This document shows, piece after piece, positions 31,420-44,838 of a stretch of 64,000 nucleotides of DNA. The notes beneath the pieces are model-generated. The model did no database searches and was not told the origin of the DNA. It saw only the letters and a list, made by a program, of their open reading frames with translations. The stretch is from Candidatus Latescibacterota bacterium. GTDB lineage: Bacteria; Latescibacterota; UBA2968; GCA-2709665. Position 1 is the first letter of the stretch, and every line of letters starts with the position of its first letter. The DNA is taken from the NCBI GenBank assembly GCA_965226795.1, contig CBDDDZ010000002.1:1-64000 (forward strand), read 5' to 3'. A program made the position numbers and the translations under genes.

Positions 31420-31698
31420 TCAGGTCAGAACGATGCGGAGCTGCTTGCCCAGCGCCCGCGCAGCGCGGTCCATTGTCCGCAGCGTTACGGAGGGATTGGA
31501 CGCGTCAAGCAATCGGTCCAGCGCTGAACGACTGGTTTGCATGCGCCTGGCCATCGCCGACTTGGACAGCTTGTTCTCGTCCATGAACTGACTCAACTGA
31601 TACGCAATAACGCGTTTCGTTGCCGTAGCCTCCGCTTCACTGAGAAGGCCCTCTTCTGTTAGGAATTCGTCAAAGCTGCTGCCGGCATGTTTACTCAT
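31420..31698 (-). CDS. XRE-HTH antitoxin
   Basis: GSSFDEFL, SKSAMARRMQTSRSALDRLLD; ATGA overlap with the toxin. Confidence 0.88.
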   Translation of the reverse strand: MSKHAGSSFDEFLTEEGLLSEAEATATKRVIAYQLSQFMDENKLSKSAMARRMQTSRSALDRLLDASNPSVTLRTMDRAARALGKQLRIVLT

Positions 31699-32048
31699 CT
31701 TGCCTCCCGTACCGTCATTAGCCTGGAGCGTGCCAAATGGAGATCTCTGGCGGAAGTCTTCTGACTCTTTTTGATGAAACCGTGCAACAGCAGAATTGTG
31801 CCACCGTAGACCGTAAAGAAGACTCGGGCTATTGAATCGGGCAGTGTGCTGCGGACCTCCCAAAGATCGTTGTCGAGCTTTCGGATCAGCGGCATTCCAA
31901 GAGGCCACCCGAATTGAACGGTCTTGATGTCTGCACCAATGATCCTCTTCGCCTCGCGATCCAGGCTGCGCAGCCACGATCTAACCGGTTCACGTCCTGT
32001 CGTCGTACGGAAGAAGCGAACGGTTATTGGCTTGTCTCTGTTCATCAT
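31695..32048 (-). CDS. RelE/HigB-like (Gp49-type) toxin
   Basis: GREPVRSWL, GWPLGMPL, LWEVRS, LLHGFIKKSQKT. Confidence 0.9.
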   Translation of the reverse strand: MMNRDKPITVRFFRTTTGREPVRSWLRSLDREAKRIIGADIKTVQFGWPLGMPLIRKLDNDLWEVRSTLPDSIARVFFTVYGGTILLLHGFIKKSQKTSARDLHLARSRLMTVREAR

Positions 32049-33646: not shown

Positions 33647-34231
33647 TCACGACTCGATAGGAGGAAGGTCAATCGGGGTCATTACCCCGAAAAAGCCATA
33701 CTTGATTCCGGAAGGATCTCCCTTGCCAGGTGGAAAGTACTCCTCTATGAGGCTCAGAAGCCGACGGTTGAATTCGGCCGCCTGCCCTTCCGAGAGTCGA
33801 GCGCGGTTATGGTTGACAGAGCTCTGAAAATCCGGACCGAATATGCCGTCCGCACTTTCGCGAAACGCCTGGTTAAACTGGCAAACAACCTCCGAACCGA
33901 CTGGCTCGGAGGTTCTGGCCGTCTCATCCACCGGGTCCGGGAGTCGAATCTTGCGCGCCGCCGGGAGGCAACGCCAGGCCCTCGGGTCACGACCGGTTTC
34001 TTGGAGATGTACGATATCCGATTCCGCGAGTCGCTTCAGGTGGCGGAGAACCCGGGTATCGGTAACACCCAACATCGACGATATCTCTGCCACGGATTTT
34101 CCCTCGCCAAGAGTTTCCAGGATGCGCCGCCGTAGAGGATCCGCGAGCAAAGTGACTCGTTCGTCATCGATAATAAGCACGGACCCCTTGCTGGTGTCAC
34201 CCGGGAACGTCAATTCGAGCCAGTCAGCCAT
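33647..34231 (-). CDS. ArsR-like winged-helix regulator
   Basis: LADPLRRRILETL, SVAEIS, HLKRLAESDIV. Confidence 0.8.
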   Translation of the reverse strand: MADWLELTFPGDTSKGSVLIIDDERVTLLADPLRRRILETLGEGKSVAEISSMLGVTDTRVLRHLKRLAESDIVHLQETGRDPRAWRCLPAARKIRLPDPVDETARTSEPVGSEVVCQFNQAFRESADGIFGPDFQSSVNHNRARLSEGQAAEFNRRLLSLIEEYFPPGKGDPSGIKYGFFGVMTPIDLPPIES

Positions 34232-38695: not shown

Positions 38696-41600
38696 CTACG
38701 TGATAAGCGCGACGGCTTTTTCTTTCAGCGCCGGAAGCAACTCGTCCGCTGCTCGTTCGAGCGCGGCCAGTGCCTTATCCACGTCTTCAAGGTCCCCGTC
38801 CCGCGCCATGGTTTCCAGCCGCAATGCCGCCTCCATGGCCGGTTCCGCATGGAAGACAGCCGCCGAACCCTTCAGTGTATGGGCCGCGCGCCGCAGCAGG
38901 GTCCCATCGCCGTGTCTGATCGCCCGTTTCATTTCTTCAATGTGCTTCCCGTACTCCGTAACAAACAGGCCGGCCAGTTCACCCAGAAGCGCCTCGTTGC
39001 CGCCAACCTGGTCCAGTGCCCCCTGCCAATCCAGTGCGTCGCTACCGACACCGGGCTCCGCCCGCGATTCACCGTCCGATGAGCCGTTAGTCTCCACAAC
39101 ATCGTAGAGATGTCCCGCCCGGATCGGCTTGGGAAGGTAATCGTCCATCCCCTGTTCCAGACACCGCTCTCTGTCTCCCTGCATCACGTGGGCCGTCATT
39201 GCCGCAATTCGAATATGCTCCCCCGACGACCTTTCCCGTTCCCTGATAATCCGTGTTGCCTCCAACCCATCCATCTCCGGCATCTGTATATCCATCAGGA
39301 TCAGATCGAATGTGTCGTTCTCCAGCGCCGTGAGTACTTCCTTGCCGTTGGTGACGGCGGTAACCTGGTGGCCGCGCGGCTCGAGCAGGTCCACGATCAC
39401 TTTCCGGTTGACCATGCCGTCCTCTGCCAACAGGACGCGGCGCCTGTCGGCGGGCGGCAACGGTTCCGCAATCTTCGCAATATCTACGGGCTCGACAACG
39501 CTCACCTCCAGGGCCGCCAGCGTGGCATCGAGCAGGTCGGACTGCTTGACCGGCTTGGTCAGACATCGCGCAAGCCCCAACGCGTCACATCGCACCGCGT
39601 CGTTTGTTCTTCCCGCGGACGAAAGTATCAGAATCGGTACCTCTTTCACATCCGGATCCCGGCGGATACGCTCGGCCAGCGCGAACCCGTCCATATCGGG
39701 CATCATTGCGTCCAGAAAGAAAAGGTGGAACGGCGAATCCGCATCGCCAGCCTCCCGGAGTGTCTCGAGCGCGGCCGGCCCCGAATCCGCCACGTCAATT
39801 TTCATACCCCAGGTTCCCAGCATCTCCTCGAAGATAAACCGGTTTGTACGGTTGTTATCCACCACCAGCGCCCGGAGACCCACCAGGGTCTGGAGATCGG
39901 CCGCCGACCGCTTCGCCGGCTGGGGTTGGGCCTCGAAGAGCGCTGTGAAATAAAACGTGCTCCCTTTGTCAGGCGCGCTCTCCACCCACATGCGTCCACC
40001 CATCATCGTGGCCAGTTGGGATGAAATCGCCAGGCCCAGCCCCGTTCCTCCAAACCGCCGGGAAGTAGAAGAGTCTACCTGGCTGAAAGAGTCGAAAATG
40101 ATCGGCCGATCTTCGGGCGCGATCCCGATGCCGGTATCCCGAACAAAGAACCTCAGACAGAGCTTCTCTTCCTCCCGTGCGTCCACCTTTACGTCAACCA
40201 GCACGTCGCCTTTCTCCGTGAACTTTATGGCGTTGTCCACCAGGTTAATCACGATCTGCCGCAAACGGCCCGGGTCCCCCACCAGCCTGTCCGGAACCTC
40301 CGGTGCAATATGGCACGCCAGCTCCAGCCGGTTCTGTGTGGCTTTGACCGCAAGGGTCTGAACGGTGTCCCCCAGCGTATCGCGGAGGTCGAAGCCGATC
40401 GCTTCCAGTTCCAGCCGGTCCACCTCGAGTTTGGAGAAATCGAGAATATCGTTCAGAAGTGCCAGTAAGGCCTCCGAAGACTGCCTGCTCAACTTGAGAT
40501 ACTCGCGTTGTTGAGGCGTCAACTCCGTGTTGCCCAGAAGCTCCGTCATGCCCATGATGCCATTCATCGGCGTACGGATCTCGTGGCTCATATTGGCCAG
40601 AAACTCGCTTTTTGCGCGATTCGCCTTTTCGGCGGCGTCTTTCGCTTTCTGCAACTCCGCCCCCGAACGCTCCAGTGCAACCGTACTCTTCTTCAGCGCT
40701 TCGTTCGCTTCACGCTCGGCAGCCGCGGTTTTCTCGAGTTGCCGGTTCTTTTCCTGCAGCTGTATCTCGGTGCGCTTGCGTAGCGTGATATCCCGCACCG
40801 TACCGATCATATGTACATACTGCTCCGCGCTGTCACCGAAAACGCGGCCTTTATTTCCCAGCCACCGAACCGTCCCTTCCGGCCATACAACCCGGTGCTC
40901 GACCTCGAAATCCACCCCTTCCCTGATCGTGCGCCGCACCGCACTGCGAACCATCGCCCGGTCTTCGGGGTGCACGAGTTCATAGAACGCCTCGCGCGTA
41001 CCTTCGAACACTTCCGGTTTAAGGCCGAACAACGGCGCCACCAGATCCGACCAGACCAGTTCTCCGGTCAGCAGGTTGGAATCCCAACTCCCCATGTGGG
41101 CGGCTTCCATTGCCAGCTTGAGCCGGGCTTCGCTCTCACGTAATGCCTGTTCTGAGCGCTTCCGTTCGGAGTCCAGATACGCGAGCGACCGTGCGTACCA
41201 CCAGATCAGAATGTTCAGCGCTACGATCACCCCCAGGGAGAACAGCGACATTCCGGATTCGAAACCCAAAATCACTTCGCCGTAAGGCCAGAGCCAGCCC
41301 AGCGCCAGTGGAATCAGGAAAGCCTGAGGCAGCAACCGGCGCGCCATCGAACCGCCAGCGGTCGAGCTGACGATGGTTGTCGTTGGTTCCAGGTCCGGAC
41401 GGGATAAAAACAGGCCAACGCACAGCAGGCCGAATGTGAGCGTTGTGACGGCGCTCATCTGAATATCCCATGTCACTTCCCGGGGCGAGAGCGTCAGGTA
41501 AAAATGCCCAATTGCATAACCGATCGATACGATTGAGGCGACAGACAGACACGTCAGCGCCGGCCACGCGCTTCCTCTGATTTTAAATTGCCAGAGAAAC

Positions 41601-41968
41601 AAGGCCAGGCCGATCAGCGCAAAATTACACGCCTCATCGCGCAACATATGCCCCGCGCCTGCCTCGAAACCGATAAATACGGGGCCCGCGCCAACCAGTT
41701 CCAGAAACGCGAAGACCACCACCACCGCGCTGATTGCCTTCCCCAGGAACTGCCGCCGCGCGGATGATATTCCGTTACGCAGCAGCCACAGCGCGACGCC
41801 GGCCAGTACGAACATCCCAGCCGTCAGCAGAGACATCCATTCAGCGACAGGGGCGTTGACCAGCCATCCGAACAGAACCAACAGGGATAACAGAACAACC
41901 GCCAGATTCGCCGTTTGCGCGGCTATCGCGGCCAGACGCACCAGACGAGGGTCGGCATAATCGTCCAT
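38696..41968 (-). CDS. Membrane hybrid sensor kinase (TM-PAS-HisKA-HATPase-REC-REC-Hpt)
   Basis: ANMSHEIRTPM, NAIKFT, DTGIGI, GGTGLGL, LDAMMPDMDG, MDIQMPEMDG, AAHTLKGS. Confidence 0.95.
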   Translation of the reverse strand: MDDYADPRLVRLAAIAAQTANLAVVLLSLLVLFGWLVNAPVAEWMSLLTAGMFVLAGVALWLLRNGISSARRQFLGKAISAVVVVFAFLELVGAGPVFIGFEAGAGHMLRDEACNFALIGLALFLWQFKIRGSAWPALTCLSVASIVSIGYAIGHFYLTLSPREVTWDIQMSAVTTLTFGLLCVGLFLSRPDLEPTTTIVSSTAGGSMARRLLPQAFLIPLALGWLWPYGEVILGFESGMSLFSLGVIVALNILIWWYARSLAYLDSERKRSEQALRESEARLKLAMEAAHMGSWDSNLLTGELVWSDLVAPLFGLKPEVFEGTREAFYELVHPEDRAMVRSAVRRTIREGVDFEVEHRVVWPEGTVRWLGNKGRVFGDSAEQYVHMIGTVRDITLRKRTEIQLQEKNRQLEKTAAAEREANEALKKSTVALERSGAELQKAKDAAEKANRAKSEFLANMSHEIRTPMNGIMGMTELLGNTELTPQQREYLKLSRQSSEALLALLNDILDFSKLEVDRLELEAIGFDLRDTLGDTVQTLAVKATQNRLELACHIAPEVPDRLVGDPGRLRQIVINLVDNAIKFTEKGDVLVDVKVDAREEEKLCLRFFVRDTGIGIAPEDRPIIFDSFSQVDSSTSRRFGGTGLGLAISSQLATMMGGRMWVESAPDKGSTFYFTALFEAQPQPAKRSAADLQTLVGLRALVVDNNRTNRFIFEEMLGTWGMKIDVADSGPAALETLREAGDADSPFHLFFLDAMMPDMDGFALAERIRRDPDVKEVPILILSSAGRTNDAVRCDALGLARCLTKPVKQSDLLDATLAALEVSVVEPVDIAKIAEPLPPADRRRVLLAEDGMVNRKVIVDLLEPRGHQVTAVTNGKEVLTALENDTFDLILMDIQMPEMDGLEATRIIRERERSSGEHIRIAAMTAHVMQGDRERCLEQGMDDYLPKPIRAGHLYDVVETNGSSDGESRAEPGVGSDALDWQGALDQVGGNEALLGELAGLFVTEYGKHIEEMKRAIRHGDGTLLRRAAHTLKGSAAVFHAEPAMEAALRLETMARDGDLEDVDKALAALERAADELLPALKEKAVALIT

Positions 41969-41979
41969 TTCAGACCTTC

Positions 41980-43644
41980 CTACGGGAAGATACCCCTCAG
42001 GAGTTTCGCCTGAGTCACGCGGTGGATTCCTTCAATCAGCGCTGCAGTTCGTATATCCAGCCCATCGCGTTCGGACCGCTGCATCGTCCGTCGGAACGCG
42101 TGGAGCATTATCTGTCTGAGTCGTTCGTTGATCTCCTCGAGCGTCCACATATAATTCTGCGTATCCTGCACCCACTCGAAATAGGAAACCGTAACGCCCC
42201 CGGCGTTGCCGAGCACGTCCGGCAGAATGAACACGCCCTTTTCCATCAGGATCTCATCCGCTTCCAGAGACGTGGGCCCGTTGGCGCCCTCGGCCAGAAT
42301 TCTGCACCGGATCCGTTCGGCATTGTCCGCGGTGATCTGATTCTGCATGGCTGCGGGGACAAGGACATCGCACGGTATCTCGAGCAGTTCCTGATTGCTC
42401 ACGGCATCTCCGCCGGCGTAACCTTCCAGAAACCGGTTTTCTTCCACGTGTTGGAGCAGCGAATCCACCGACAGGCCGTCGGGATTGTAAATTCCGGTTG
42501 TGACATCGCTCACGCCAAGCAGCCTGACCCCACAGGCCTCCAGAAACCGTGCCGCATTGCTCCCGACGTTTCCAAAACCCTGTACCACAGCCGTCGCATG
42601 TCGCAAGTCCAACCGGATATGGTTGGCCGCCTCCTCCACCATGTATACAAGCCCTCGCCCCGTGGCCTCGCGACGACCCTCGGAGCCGCCCAGCACCACC
42701 GGCTTGCCGGTCACGACCGCCGGCACGGTATGTCCCATCTGGTGGCTGTACGTGTCCATCATCCAGGCCATCACATGCTCGTCAGTGCCCATGTCCGGTG
42801 CCGGGATATCCTTTTGCGGCCCGATAACGTCGATAATCTCCGACGTATACCTGCGAGTCAGGCGCTGCAGTTCGTGCCGCGAAAGTACGGTCGGGTCAAT
42901 TCGCACGCCGCCTTTTGCGCCGCCGAACGGCAAATTCATCAATGCACACTTCCACGTCATCCACATTGCCAGGGCGGATACCTCGCCCAGATTCACATCC
43001 TGATGATAGCGCACGCCGCCCTTCGTGGGGCCCATCGTCAACACATGCTGAATCCGGTATCCGGCGACCGTCTCCACATATTCGTGTTCATCCCGCCGGA
43101 ACGGAAAGGTCACCACATGGGTACGCTGTGGGAACAACAGCCGCTGGCGGATGTTGTCATCCAGTTCCATCAACTGCGCCGCCTTCAAAAACTGGCGCTG
43201 CGCCAGCCGGAACATCGGCGACTCCCATTCGGCGTGTAGTGCCCGGCTGCGTTCTACGGCGTATCGGATCGACCTCACCAGGAGAGGGCCGTTCAATTTG
43301 GATTTCACAAGATAATCCTGCGCCCCCGCCTCAACCGCCCGCGCCGCCAGTTTGATATCCTTCAGGCTGGACAGAATGACCACAGGCAAATCCGGATATG
43401 CCGCGCGTACACGGAAATACGTGTCCAGGTCCTCGCTGTCGGGCAGCACCAGGTCCAGCAGCAGCACTTCGTATCCGTCCGCAGCAAGCCGGTTCAGCCC
43501 TTCCGCGAGCGTATCCGCCGCATCCACCTCGAATACCGGGCCCGCGGATTCAGCGAGCAATTCTCGAATCAGCCGCGTGTGCAGCGGATTGTCTTCAATC
43601 AACAACGATTTCAGGTTTGTCGCTGGCATGGCTCCATGTTCCAT
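41980..43644 (-). CDS. Response-regulator receiver fused to Glu/Leu/Phe/Val (glutamate-type) dehydrogenase
   Basis: REC: LLIEDN, LLLDLVLPD, VVILSS, DYLVK. GDH: KGGVRYH, MTWKCA, GGAKGG, DIPAPD, QGFGNVG, EGANGPT, NAGGVTVSYFEWVQ. Start 43644 or 43629. Confidence 0.93.
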   Translation of the reverse strand: MEHGAMPATNLKSLLIEDNPLHTRLIRELLAESAGPVFEVDAADTLAEGLNRLAADGYEVLLLDLVLPDSEDLDTYFRVRAAYPDLPVVILSSLKDIKLAARAVEAGAQDYLVKSKLNGPLLVRSIRYAVERSRALHAEWESPMFRLAQRQFLKAAQLMELDDNIRQRLLFPQRTHVVTFPFRRDEHEYVETVAGYRIQHVLTMGPTKGGVRYHQDVNLGEVSALAMWMTWKCALMNLPFGGAKGGVRIDPTVLSRHELQRLTRRYTSEIIDVIGPQKDIPAPDMGTDEHVMAWMMDTYSHQMGHTVPAVVTGKPVVLGGSEGRREATGRGLVYMVEEAANHIRLDLRHATAVVQGFGNVGSNAARFLEACGVRLLGVSDVTTGIYNPDGLSVDSLLQHVEENRFLEGYAGGDAVSNQELLEIPCDVLVPAAMQNQITADNAERIRCRILAEGANGPTSLEADEILMEKGVFILPDVLGNAGGVTVSYFEWVQDTQNYMWTLEEINERLRQIMLHAFRRTMQRSERDGLDIRTAALIEGIHRVTQAKLLRGIFP

Positions 43645-43869: not shown

Positions 43870-44838
43870 TCACCTGCGCTCGCGTCGCAGATCCAGCCAG
43901 TCCAGTTCCTCCGGCGAAAGCCGGATGTCCATGGCCTCCTGGTTCAGACGGCTTTCCTCGACCGACCTGCAGCCGGCCAGCGTGAAGGTGTTCAGCGGTT
44001 GATTGAAAAGGAACGCGAGCGCGATCTGCGCCACCGTCTTTCCGCGCTCGCTGGCGAGTTCGATCGCGCGGTCCAGCCGACTGAAGTTCTCCTCGTATCC
44101 GTAGACCTGCACGCAGCCCTCCGGCATCTCGTTCCCCATCTCTGAAATGTTTCCGCGTGTCAAGCGCCCGGAAAAAAAGCCCTGCGCCAGGCTGGACCAT
44201 GTAAATACCGGCATCTGCGATTGCCGGTACCAGGCGCGCTCCTCGGCCCCCCGGGGTCCGGAGATACTCAGACAACCCTCCCAGATTTCCTCCTTACGCA
44301 CGGCCAGGCTGAAATTCGGACTGCTGGCGACAAATGGCATCAGGCCGTGATTCCGTGCATACAAATTGGCTTCAAGGATGCGATTCACCGACCAGTTGGA
44401 TCCGCCGAAGGCGCGGATGCGCCCTTCGGACGTGTGCTCGTTCAGCGCCTCCACGAGCGGCCCCACCGGCACCCCGGGATCGTCCCGATGAAGCAGGTAG
44501 AGGTCGATGTAATCGGTTTTGAGCCGCGCGAGGGAATCGAACAGGTCGGACGCGATGTCGAACACCGTCACCCGACGGCGGTCCGCATTGTGATGGCCGC
44601 CTTTGCTCAGTATGAATACGTCGCTACGATTACCCCGCAGATCCATCCAGGCGCCCAGCGTCCGTTCCGCCTCTCCGTTTCCATATATCTGCGCGGTATC
44701 GAAACTGTTGCATCCCAGCGCCCGGATCCCGTCAAGAAACTCGATGTTCGCCTCCAGGTCGTCCGTCGACAGCATCAACGTGCCCTGAACGAGCCGGGAT
44801 ACCGGTTTGTCAATCCCCTCGACACGTCCATACTTCAT
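43870..44838 (-). CDS. Aldo/keto reductase
   Basis: FDTAQIYG, LYLLHRDD, FGGSNW. Confidence 0.9.
   Translation of the reverse strand: MKYGRVEGIDKPVSRLVQGTLMLSTDDLEANIEFLDGIRALGCNSFDTAQIYGNGEAERTLGAWMDLRGNRSDVFILSKGGHHNADRRRVTVFDIASDLFDSLARLKTDYIDLYLLHRDDPGVPVGPLVEALNEHTSEGRIRAFGGSNWSVNRILEANLYARNHGLMPFVASSPNFSLAVRKEEIWEGCLSISGPRGAEERAWYRQSQMPVFTWSSLAQGFFSGRLTRGNISEMGNEMPEGCVQVYGYEENFSRLDRAIELASERGKTVAQIALAFLFNQPLNTFTLAGCRSVEESRLNQEAMDIRLSPEELDWLDLRRERR

Follow-up and report, generated by a model that had tools for sequence, protein, structure and literature searches.

Why should an enzyme of central metabolism carry the receiver domain of a two-component system, and what, if anything, phosphorylates it? 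The question is raised by a stretch of 64,000 nucleotides from Candidatus Latescibacterota bacterium (contig CBDDDZ010000002.1 of assembly GCA_965226795.1; the whole stretch is called the window below), in which a minus-strand gene at 41980..43644 joins a receiver to a glutamate dehydrogenase (GDH) and is followed by the gene of an unorthodox hybrid sensor kinase (38696..41968, minus strand, 1090 amino acids) that ends in an Hpt domain. Two-component systems mostly act via genes or second messengers. Here, fusion and kinase are both intact and under purifying selection, all relay residues are present, and each partner is single-copy. We put at about 0.65 the probability that a dedicated relay phosphorylates D64 of the receiver and alters the activity of the fused GDH through a helix of fixed length.

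One gene for receiver and GDH

The fusion is encoded by a single open reading frame (ORF) of 554 amino acids with no internal stop codon. Pfam finds in its translation Response_reg (residues 14-115, E-value 3e-16), ELFV_dehydrog_N (172-301, 1e-52), and ELFV_dehydrog (319-551, 3e-79), and the motifs that an earlier note, made from the letters of the window alone, had named in claiming a complete receiver and a full GDH in one unbroken frame are all there. The true start is probably the second methionine, at 43629, giving a protein of 549 amino acids, because a GGAG sits just 5' of that codon and the ORF of 549 amino acids is the one called in 12 of 14 relatives of the genus; residues are numbered here from the first ATG.

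The three-domain architecture, for which the earlier note had proposed a search, is present in all 120 of the homologues listed (of 8000 scored), at identities of 69-90%. The junction near 43250, which it had wished to see checked against reads, is spanned by a contig from a public RNA library (run X8, 42309-43379) with zero differences. A chimera or frameshift at the junction is ruled out by these fused homologues and by the contigs that span it. RNA-library contigs, which are no readout of transcription or co-transcription, cover the fusion and kinase genes and bridge the gap between them, and the independent runs with contigs over both junction and gap include sponge metagenomes. A scan for promoters and terminators was uninformative (5 and 3 sites, respectively, against 2.5 and 5.0 expected).

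The receiver (residues 10-130; 43255..43617, minus strand) has the fold and the residues of a phosphorylatable response regulator: the acidic pair E17 and D18, the phospho-acceptor D64, S92, the aromatic switch Y111, and K114. In the listed homologues, E17, D18, and K114 are conserved in 120 of 120, D64 in 119, and Thr or Ser at position 92 in 119. Against 14 relatives from the genus, the ratio of nonsynonymous to synonymous substitution rates (dN/dS) comes to 0.13 in the receiver, 0.07 in the linker, and 0.06 in the GDH; values in the kinase domains are 0.06-0.20. Structural receivers, or pseudo-receivers, are recognized by their decayed phosphorylation residues. With these residues intact, a dead receiver is ruled out in this genome, and the domain is not a structural pseudo-receiver of the wing-domain type. 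Outside GDHs, the nearest relatives of the receiver (62 matches, 37-57% identity) are for the most part kinases; GGDEF/EAL and HD-domain proteins make up some of the others, and a receiver-SpoIIE protein is a further relative. A GDH domain appeared in 0 of 62 long matches, which is weak evidence that kinase and GDH do not occur in one longer chain.

Between receiver and enzyme lies a linker of fixed length (43225..43254, minus strand). Helix 5 of the receiver is predicted to run to residue 138, followed by E139-W140 and then by a GDH helix at 143-158, and the span from K114 to E139 measures 26 residues in all 120 listed proteins and in all 115 aligned rows. A structure model built on an alignment of 70 sequences (mean predicted local confidence, pLDDT, 92.8; predicted template-modeling score, pTM, 0.82) places helices at 119-138 and 143-158, with the linker its least confident internal segment (72). 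An earlier model from 40 close sequences left domain I of the enzyme unresolved; the 70-row alignment resolved it.

The enzyme half (41983..43224, minus strand) has the ELFV dimerization and NAD(P)-binding domains and the GDH fold of the small, 50 kDa type, and it is hexameric by homology. Its best match in the PDB is the GDH of Thermotoga maritima, 1b26 (E-value 1e-138 by sequence; template-modeling (TM) score 0.93 on the target by fold). K208, K232, K244, D284, R324, and S487 align with 1b26, from which their positions were taken, and we take the three lysines, the aspartate, the arginine, and the serine to have the glutamate-binding and catalytic roles. These six residues, together with A282 and V484, are unchanged in 120 of 120 listed homologues. 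A dead enzyme in this genome, including an inactive regulatory subunit of the GdhA type, is ruled out by its intact catalytic residues.

Is the enzyme anabolic or catabolic? Its coenzyme loop (D380-V381) resembles that of the NAD-type GDHs of Bacillus subtilis and Arabidopsis, unlike that of Thermotoga. The four commonest states of the residue after the coenzyme aspartate are Val, Ala, Met, and Leu, none of the four being Ser; a serine there has been linked to NADP use, with many exceptions (PMC12364357). The fusion GDH is probably NAD-linked, judging from its loop, and a catabolic role is made likelier by the presence in the genome of a glutamine synthetase (GS) gene and a frame of 1549 amino acids for the glutamate synthase GltB.

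The kinase beside the fusion

The GDH stop codon lies 11 nt from the kinase ATG, and both this gap and the order of domains read in the earlier note (transmembrane, PAS, histidine kinase, two receivers, Hpt) were verified from the ORFs and by Pfam. On the minus strand, a multi-pass, MASE-like membrane sensor region (41159..41968) is followed by a PAS domain of the PAS_3 family (40787..41125), a HisKA and HATPase transmitter core with H462 (39941..40615), two internal receivers (39095..39868), and the Hpt domain with H1030 (38738..38980). The first receiver has D753 and an Asn as its second acidic residue; the second, with D893, is canonical. The H-box histidine H462, the HATPase domain, D753 and D893, and H1030 are all on one chain, as in other unorthodox hybrid histidine kinases.

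The membrane region was recognized by hydropathy, with about six hydrophobic segments in residues 1-270, and it has no match in Pfam. An Atlas search with it gave an unnamed cluster as the best (0.95), clusters of MASE3 and MASE4 reaching just 0.78. This unnamed multi-pass sensor domain is common to many kinases that accompany receiver-GDH fusions elsewhere, and it has a conserved ARRLLP stretch before its last helices. The best NCBIfam matches of the kinase as a whole are BarA, TorS, ArcB, and LuxQ, with which it shares the HisKA-HATPase-REC-Hpt relay and its phospho-residues. It is not an equivalog of any of them, as all 25 listed families fall under their cut-offs (BarA 482 against 890), and it differs from them in its two receivers, its unnamed membrane sensor, and its neighbor, which is an enzyme rather than a transcription factor. 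The claim that no DNA-binding response regulator lies nearby is borne out, since the window has no receiver matches beyond the two in the kinase and the one in the fusion; an ArsR-type helix-turn-helix (HTH) gene at 33647-34231 has no receiver.

Pairing within the genome and genus

Which receiver might the Hpt serve? The GDH family PF00208 and the Hpt family PF01627 have one match each in the genome, both at this locus, and the 15 genomes of the genus each have one PF00208 match and one Hpt match; a second small GDH, a large NAD-GDH, or a second Hpt was found in none of the 15. The kinase lies directly 3' of the fusion in 14 of 14 relatives of the genus. The genome has 21 receiver matches, 6 of them without the phospho-acceptor aspartate, including all 4 that are remote from kinases (over 100 kb from the nearest one, or on a contig that has none), and each other intact receiver sits inside another kinase or at most 4.6 kb from one. 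In this genome the Hpt has no competing intact orphan receiver.

The earlier note had supposed the Hpt kinase to be wired to the receiver-GDH. Genomics supports this strongly: the Hpt and the small GDH are the only ones of their kind, the Hpt belongs to a subfamily that travels with the fusion (see below), selection is purifying, and competing orphan receivers are absent. On these genomic grounds the Hpt is the likely phosphodonor of the receiver; that phosphorylation then tunes the enzyme, as the note further proposed, is inferred, so its reading as a whole is partly supported.

The fusion in other genomes

The wider sample comprises 114 fusion loci (12 of 80 found loci, 22 stretches of related genomes, and 80 kept of 126 metagenome matches), which fall into 64 clusters at 88% identity. 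An Hpt is adjacent in 33 clusters, a kinase is cut by the end of the contig in 5, neither is present in 11 (a class that requires at least 1.5 kb on both sides of the fusion), and 15 are too short; L196, with a gap of 440 nt, and L007, where the start of a CHASE domain meets the end of the contig, were classed by hand. Counting the first two groups as partner-linked, 38 of the 49 judgeable clusters have an Hpt or kinase beside the fusion. The adjacent Hpt is upstream in 19 clusters and downstream in 14. In 21 clusters it belongs to a full kinase, in 11 it has a gene to itself, and in 1 it is joined to a receiver as a REC-Hpt protein. Sensors of the partners vary as well: the unnamed membrane domain, CHASE, dCache-HAMP-PAS, GAF-PAS, MHYT, YfiR, PAS only, or REC-REC. 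The constant neighbor of the fusion is the Hpt, while the sensor domains interchange. An amino-acid-binding motif of dCache sensors was not found in those of the partner kinases in the 12 loci examined.

A profile made from 27 of these cassette Hpts, with the test genomes' own clusters left out, ranks the adjacent Hpt first in five of five genomes with several Hpts (Hpt matches scored: 8 of 12, 9 of 15, 4 of 4, 7 of 7, and 4 of 4). By sequence, the cassette Hpts are a co-travelling subfamily sharing descent, a ranking that says nothing about binding.

Receivers in the partner-linked clusters depart from the parent family at two positions. In helix 1, 60 of 62 receivers of the parent family have Asp at position 22, but every one of the 38 partner-linked clusters has His (as here, H22), Tyr, Gln, or Phe there. 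The helix 4 residue E105 is shared by all 38 and by all 11 orphan clusters (those with neither Hpt nor kinase), while parent receivers have mostly Gln, Arg, or His. Helix 1 of a receiver contacts the phosphodonor and helix 4 lies on the output face, for which reason position 22 and E105 are candidate coupling residues.

The fusion is patchy within its phylum (23 of 168 genomes), and its named carriers extend to Planctomycetota, Gemmatimonadota, Latescibacteria, Myxococcota/Deltaproteobacteria, Lujinxingia, and Gammaproteobacteria, among them the cultured Halomonas stenophila, Lujinxingia vulgaris, Gimesia, and Roseiconus. In a tree of the GDH parts, the fusions and two GDHs without receivers make up one clade (support 100), and strict monophyly of the fusions is not rejected (p = 0.3 in the approximately unbiased test, four long-branch rows dropped). 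A single origin of the fusion followed by lateral spread would be the simplest reading. The two receiver-less GDHs within the clade (L012:7959-9257 and L014:7896-9254) keep the EW motif of the linker; either they lost the receiver secondarily or they are a sister form. One lineage (L211:6222-6974, L237:7004-7756, L162, and L182) has, directly upstream of the fusion, a separate receiver protein of 250 amino acids with a helical tail.

How the relay might act on the enzyme

In the mechanism that we favor, a signal at the membrane or PAS region would set the autophosphorylation of H462, from which phosphate would pass to an internal receiver (D893 being canonical), to H1030, and then to D64 of the fusion. 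The helix 4-strand 5-helix 5 face of the fused receiver would then switch, and helix 5, running into the first helix of the GDH, would alter assembly of the hexamer or motion of its cleft. The relay would thereby gate the breakdown of glutamate in a cell that assimilates ammonia by GS and glutamate synthase. We infer the transfer steps, the effect on the enzyme, and the sign of that effect from parts whose presence and conservation are observed. On the sign, we lean very slightly toward a brake, because in relatives whose receiver has decayed the fused GDH is still intact and no other small GDH is present.

Those relatives are found among the orphans. Partner-linked clusters keep the receiver residues in 38 of 38 and the catalytic K244 in 37 of the 37 that cover it. 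The 11 orphan clusters divide into 3 with a decayed receiver, 3 with K244M, and 5 fully intact. The decayed receivers belong to a planctomycete clade (L009, L010, and L011), which has lost the second acidic residue and the Thr, has an intact GDH, and has no adjacent Hpt. In the two genomes of this kind that were checked (G168 and G169), the fusion is the sole PF00208 match, and the enzyme there would seem to need no phosphorylation to work. The K244M clusters also form a clade (L129:7226-9313, L130:5099-6748, and L201:1849-3558; support 99), in which the phospho-residues of the receiver are kept. L130 has decayed further, with K208L and R324W, and its identity to L129 is 68% in the receiver against 64% in the GDH. 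Two of these dead-enzyme genomes were checked, and both hold other GDHs. Such a clade suggests that, in at least some lineages, the fusion has a noncatalytic role. Genes for cyclopropane fatty acyl synthase (CMAS) lie upstream of the fusion in L009, L010, L129, and L201, across both damaged-orphan clades.

Several points weigh against a relay that switches the enzyme. Eleven of the 49 judgeable clusters lack an adjacent Hpt or kinase, and in 5 of these both receiver and active site are intact. In one clade the receiver persists although the enzyme is dead, an arrangement that a pure enzyme switch leaves unexplained. Just two clades underlie the link between decay and loss of the partner: a test on phylogenetically independent pairs, which set partner loss against both decay and the state of position 22, has 3 pairs, never in the opposite direction, a number that cannot reach significance. 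With the genome at 95.9% completeness, a second Hpt or GDH may have been missed. The ranking of Hpts reflects shared descent, not binding, and two of its five genomes were only partly scored. Finally, there are the exceptions to coenzyme fingerprints noted above.

Perhaps, then, the fusion is mainly a signaling node, in which binding of glutamate, 2-oxoglutarate, or NAD(H) by the GDH modulates phosphorylation or dephosphorylation of the receiver, the hexamer being either a sink or feedback on the kinase under control of a metabolite, or a display of phosphorylated receivers for some further partner. A GDH acting as metabolite sensor for the relay was the second suggestion of the earlier note, and it draws limited support from one clade, that of L129, L201, and L130, where the receiver is kept and the catalytic lysine lost, in genomes with other GDHs. 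Catalytically inactive regulatory subunits of GDH do exist, as with GdhA of Thermus (PMC9570180). However, no Hpt lies beside the fusion in the dead-enzyme clade, and in its genomes G055 and G059 no Hpt resembles those of the cassettes (none scores above 60 on the cassette profile, on which cassette Hpts score 93-146). The intact K244 of the partner-linked clusters and the lack of any other intact orphan receiver for the relay to serve in this genome also speak against a node, which we consider unlikely.

We hold it to be just as unlikely that the phosphorylated receiver controls assembly, localization, or turnover rather than catalysis (through higher-order oligomers, docking to the kinase at the membrane, or proteolysis), or that it serves a structural purpose, much as the wing domain does in lysine, arginine, and ornithine decarboxylases. 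These decarboxylases require their CheY-like wing domains to form higher-order oligomers (PMC6257575), and the fixed E105 and linker length even in the decayed receivers of L009-L011 point to a structural contact. A structural role fits poorly, however, with phospho-residues that are intact in 110 of the 113 loci where they are covered, decay being confined to L009-L011, and the shift at position 22 fits a face matched to a phosphodonor.

It is very improbable that the adjacency is co-inherited without function, the Hpt serving another receiver or an internal phosphatase route and D64 being loaded by acetyl phosphate or another kinase: some clusters without such a neighbor keep an intact receiver, and relatives may share gene order without functional coupling, but across several phyla the Hpt has remained next to the fusion even where it changed sides, was split off, or had its sensor swapped, and this genome offers it no competing receiver.

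An enzyme switched by its relay thus remains our preferred reading. A broader version of it, which is attractive but doubtful, would have the Hpt and receiver-GDH be a portable two-gene device, with interchangeable sensors across phyla, that puts a branch point of carbon and nitrogen under direct phosphorelay control without a transcriptional step, and that works in both directions, the relay gating the hexamer and ligands of the hexamer feeding back on the relay. A bidirectional device would explain why some lineages keep the receiver on a dead enzyme.

Relation to known systems

Response regulators with enzymatic output are familiar as the CheB methylesterase, the REC-GGDEF proteins of the PleD/WspR type, and the REC-SpoIIE phosphatases. 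Like them, the fusion has a phosphorylatable receiver joined N-terminally to an enzyme; it differs in that its output is a central metabolic enzyme, hexameric by homology, and in having its own subfamily of Hpt.

The novelty implied by the earlier note has to be lowered. Attachment of receivers to standard metabolic enzymes has been described as a trend (PMC5847659), GDH (EC 1.4.1.3) was listed as "probable" among two-component enzymes in Table 1 of the 2009 account of P2CS (PMC2716373), and the databases hold many such proteins. The accessible text of these sources catalogs the class, and GDH within it, without giving a partner, a mechanism, or an experiment. Fusions of receivers to metabolic enzymes in archaea were described as narrowly distributed (PMC5847659), whereas the receiver-GDH spans several phyla. 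A literature search, whose coverage left out most subscription papers, found no experimental study of a receiver-GDH fusion.

With the small hexameric GDHs (Thermotoga maritima 1b26, Thermus thermophilus GdhB, Bacillus subtilis GudB and RocG, and Arabidopsis GDH1 and GDH2), the fused enzyme shares 42-52% identity, the fold (TM scores 0.84-0.97 on the target), and the catalytic residues, but 0 of 60 listed PDB sequence matches extend over the receiver. The known control of those enzymes is by ligands or by partner proteins: GdhA and APRTh in Thermus (PMC9570180), and glutamate synthase in its "counter-enzyme" complex with GudB (PDB 7mfm). The wing-domain lysine, arginine, and ornithine decarboxylases likewise have a CheY-like domain on an oligomeric enzyme of amino acid metabolism. 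Theirs is needed to assemble the oligomer (PMC6257575), while the fusion keeps its phosphorylation residues and a travelling Hpt.

It is likely, from the conserved parts, that a gene pair common to several phyla lets a membrane signal switch an enzyme of central carbon and nitrogen metabolism directly. If so, glutamate breakdown would have a fast, signal-driven gate beside ligand allostery and counter-enzyme complexes, and the only small GDH of this genus, found in sponge metagenomes, would be under phosphorelay control. The enzyme is easy to assay, the genome points to one likely phosphodonor for it, and nature has supplied variants that may serve as ready controls: a decayed receiver, a dead enzyme, and a GDH without a receiver.

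Neighboring genes and other observations

Upstream of the fusion are genes for an aldo-keto reductase, a Gfo/Idh/MocA protein, an M3 peptidase, and an amidohydrolase, which are kept in the genus and in two members of the family. As parts of the module they can be set aside, since 0 of 64 neighbors at distant loci match them. A contig of run X12 lacks a 750-base part of the aldo-keto reductase gene immediately upstream of the fusion (window 43896-44647), the mark of a strain with a deletion. A gene similar to Gp49/RelE and an HTH gene at 31420-32048 of the window (minus strand) are probably a toxin-antitoxin pair.

Elsewhere in the genome (G000), five receivers without the phospho-acceptor aspartate (C4:16776-18369, C5:2986748-2987656, C5:1304096-1305592, and C3:231766-232323) were inspected by eye: three have AraC-like tails, two of them in tandem, a fourth has a sigma-54 activator domain, and the fifth is a stand-alone receiver. 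Two kinases (C5:2967505-2968701 and C5:2981662-2984172) carry on the same chain, again by eye, both a C-terminal receiver and an OmpR-like tail, and the former appears to be split from its N-terminal part.

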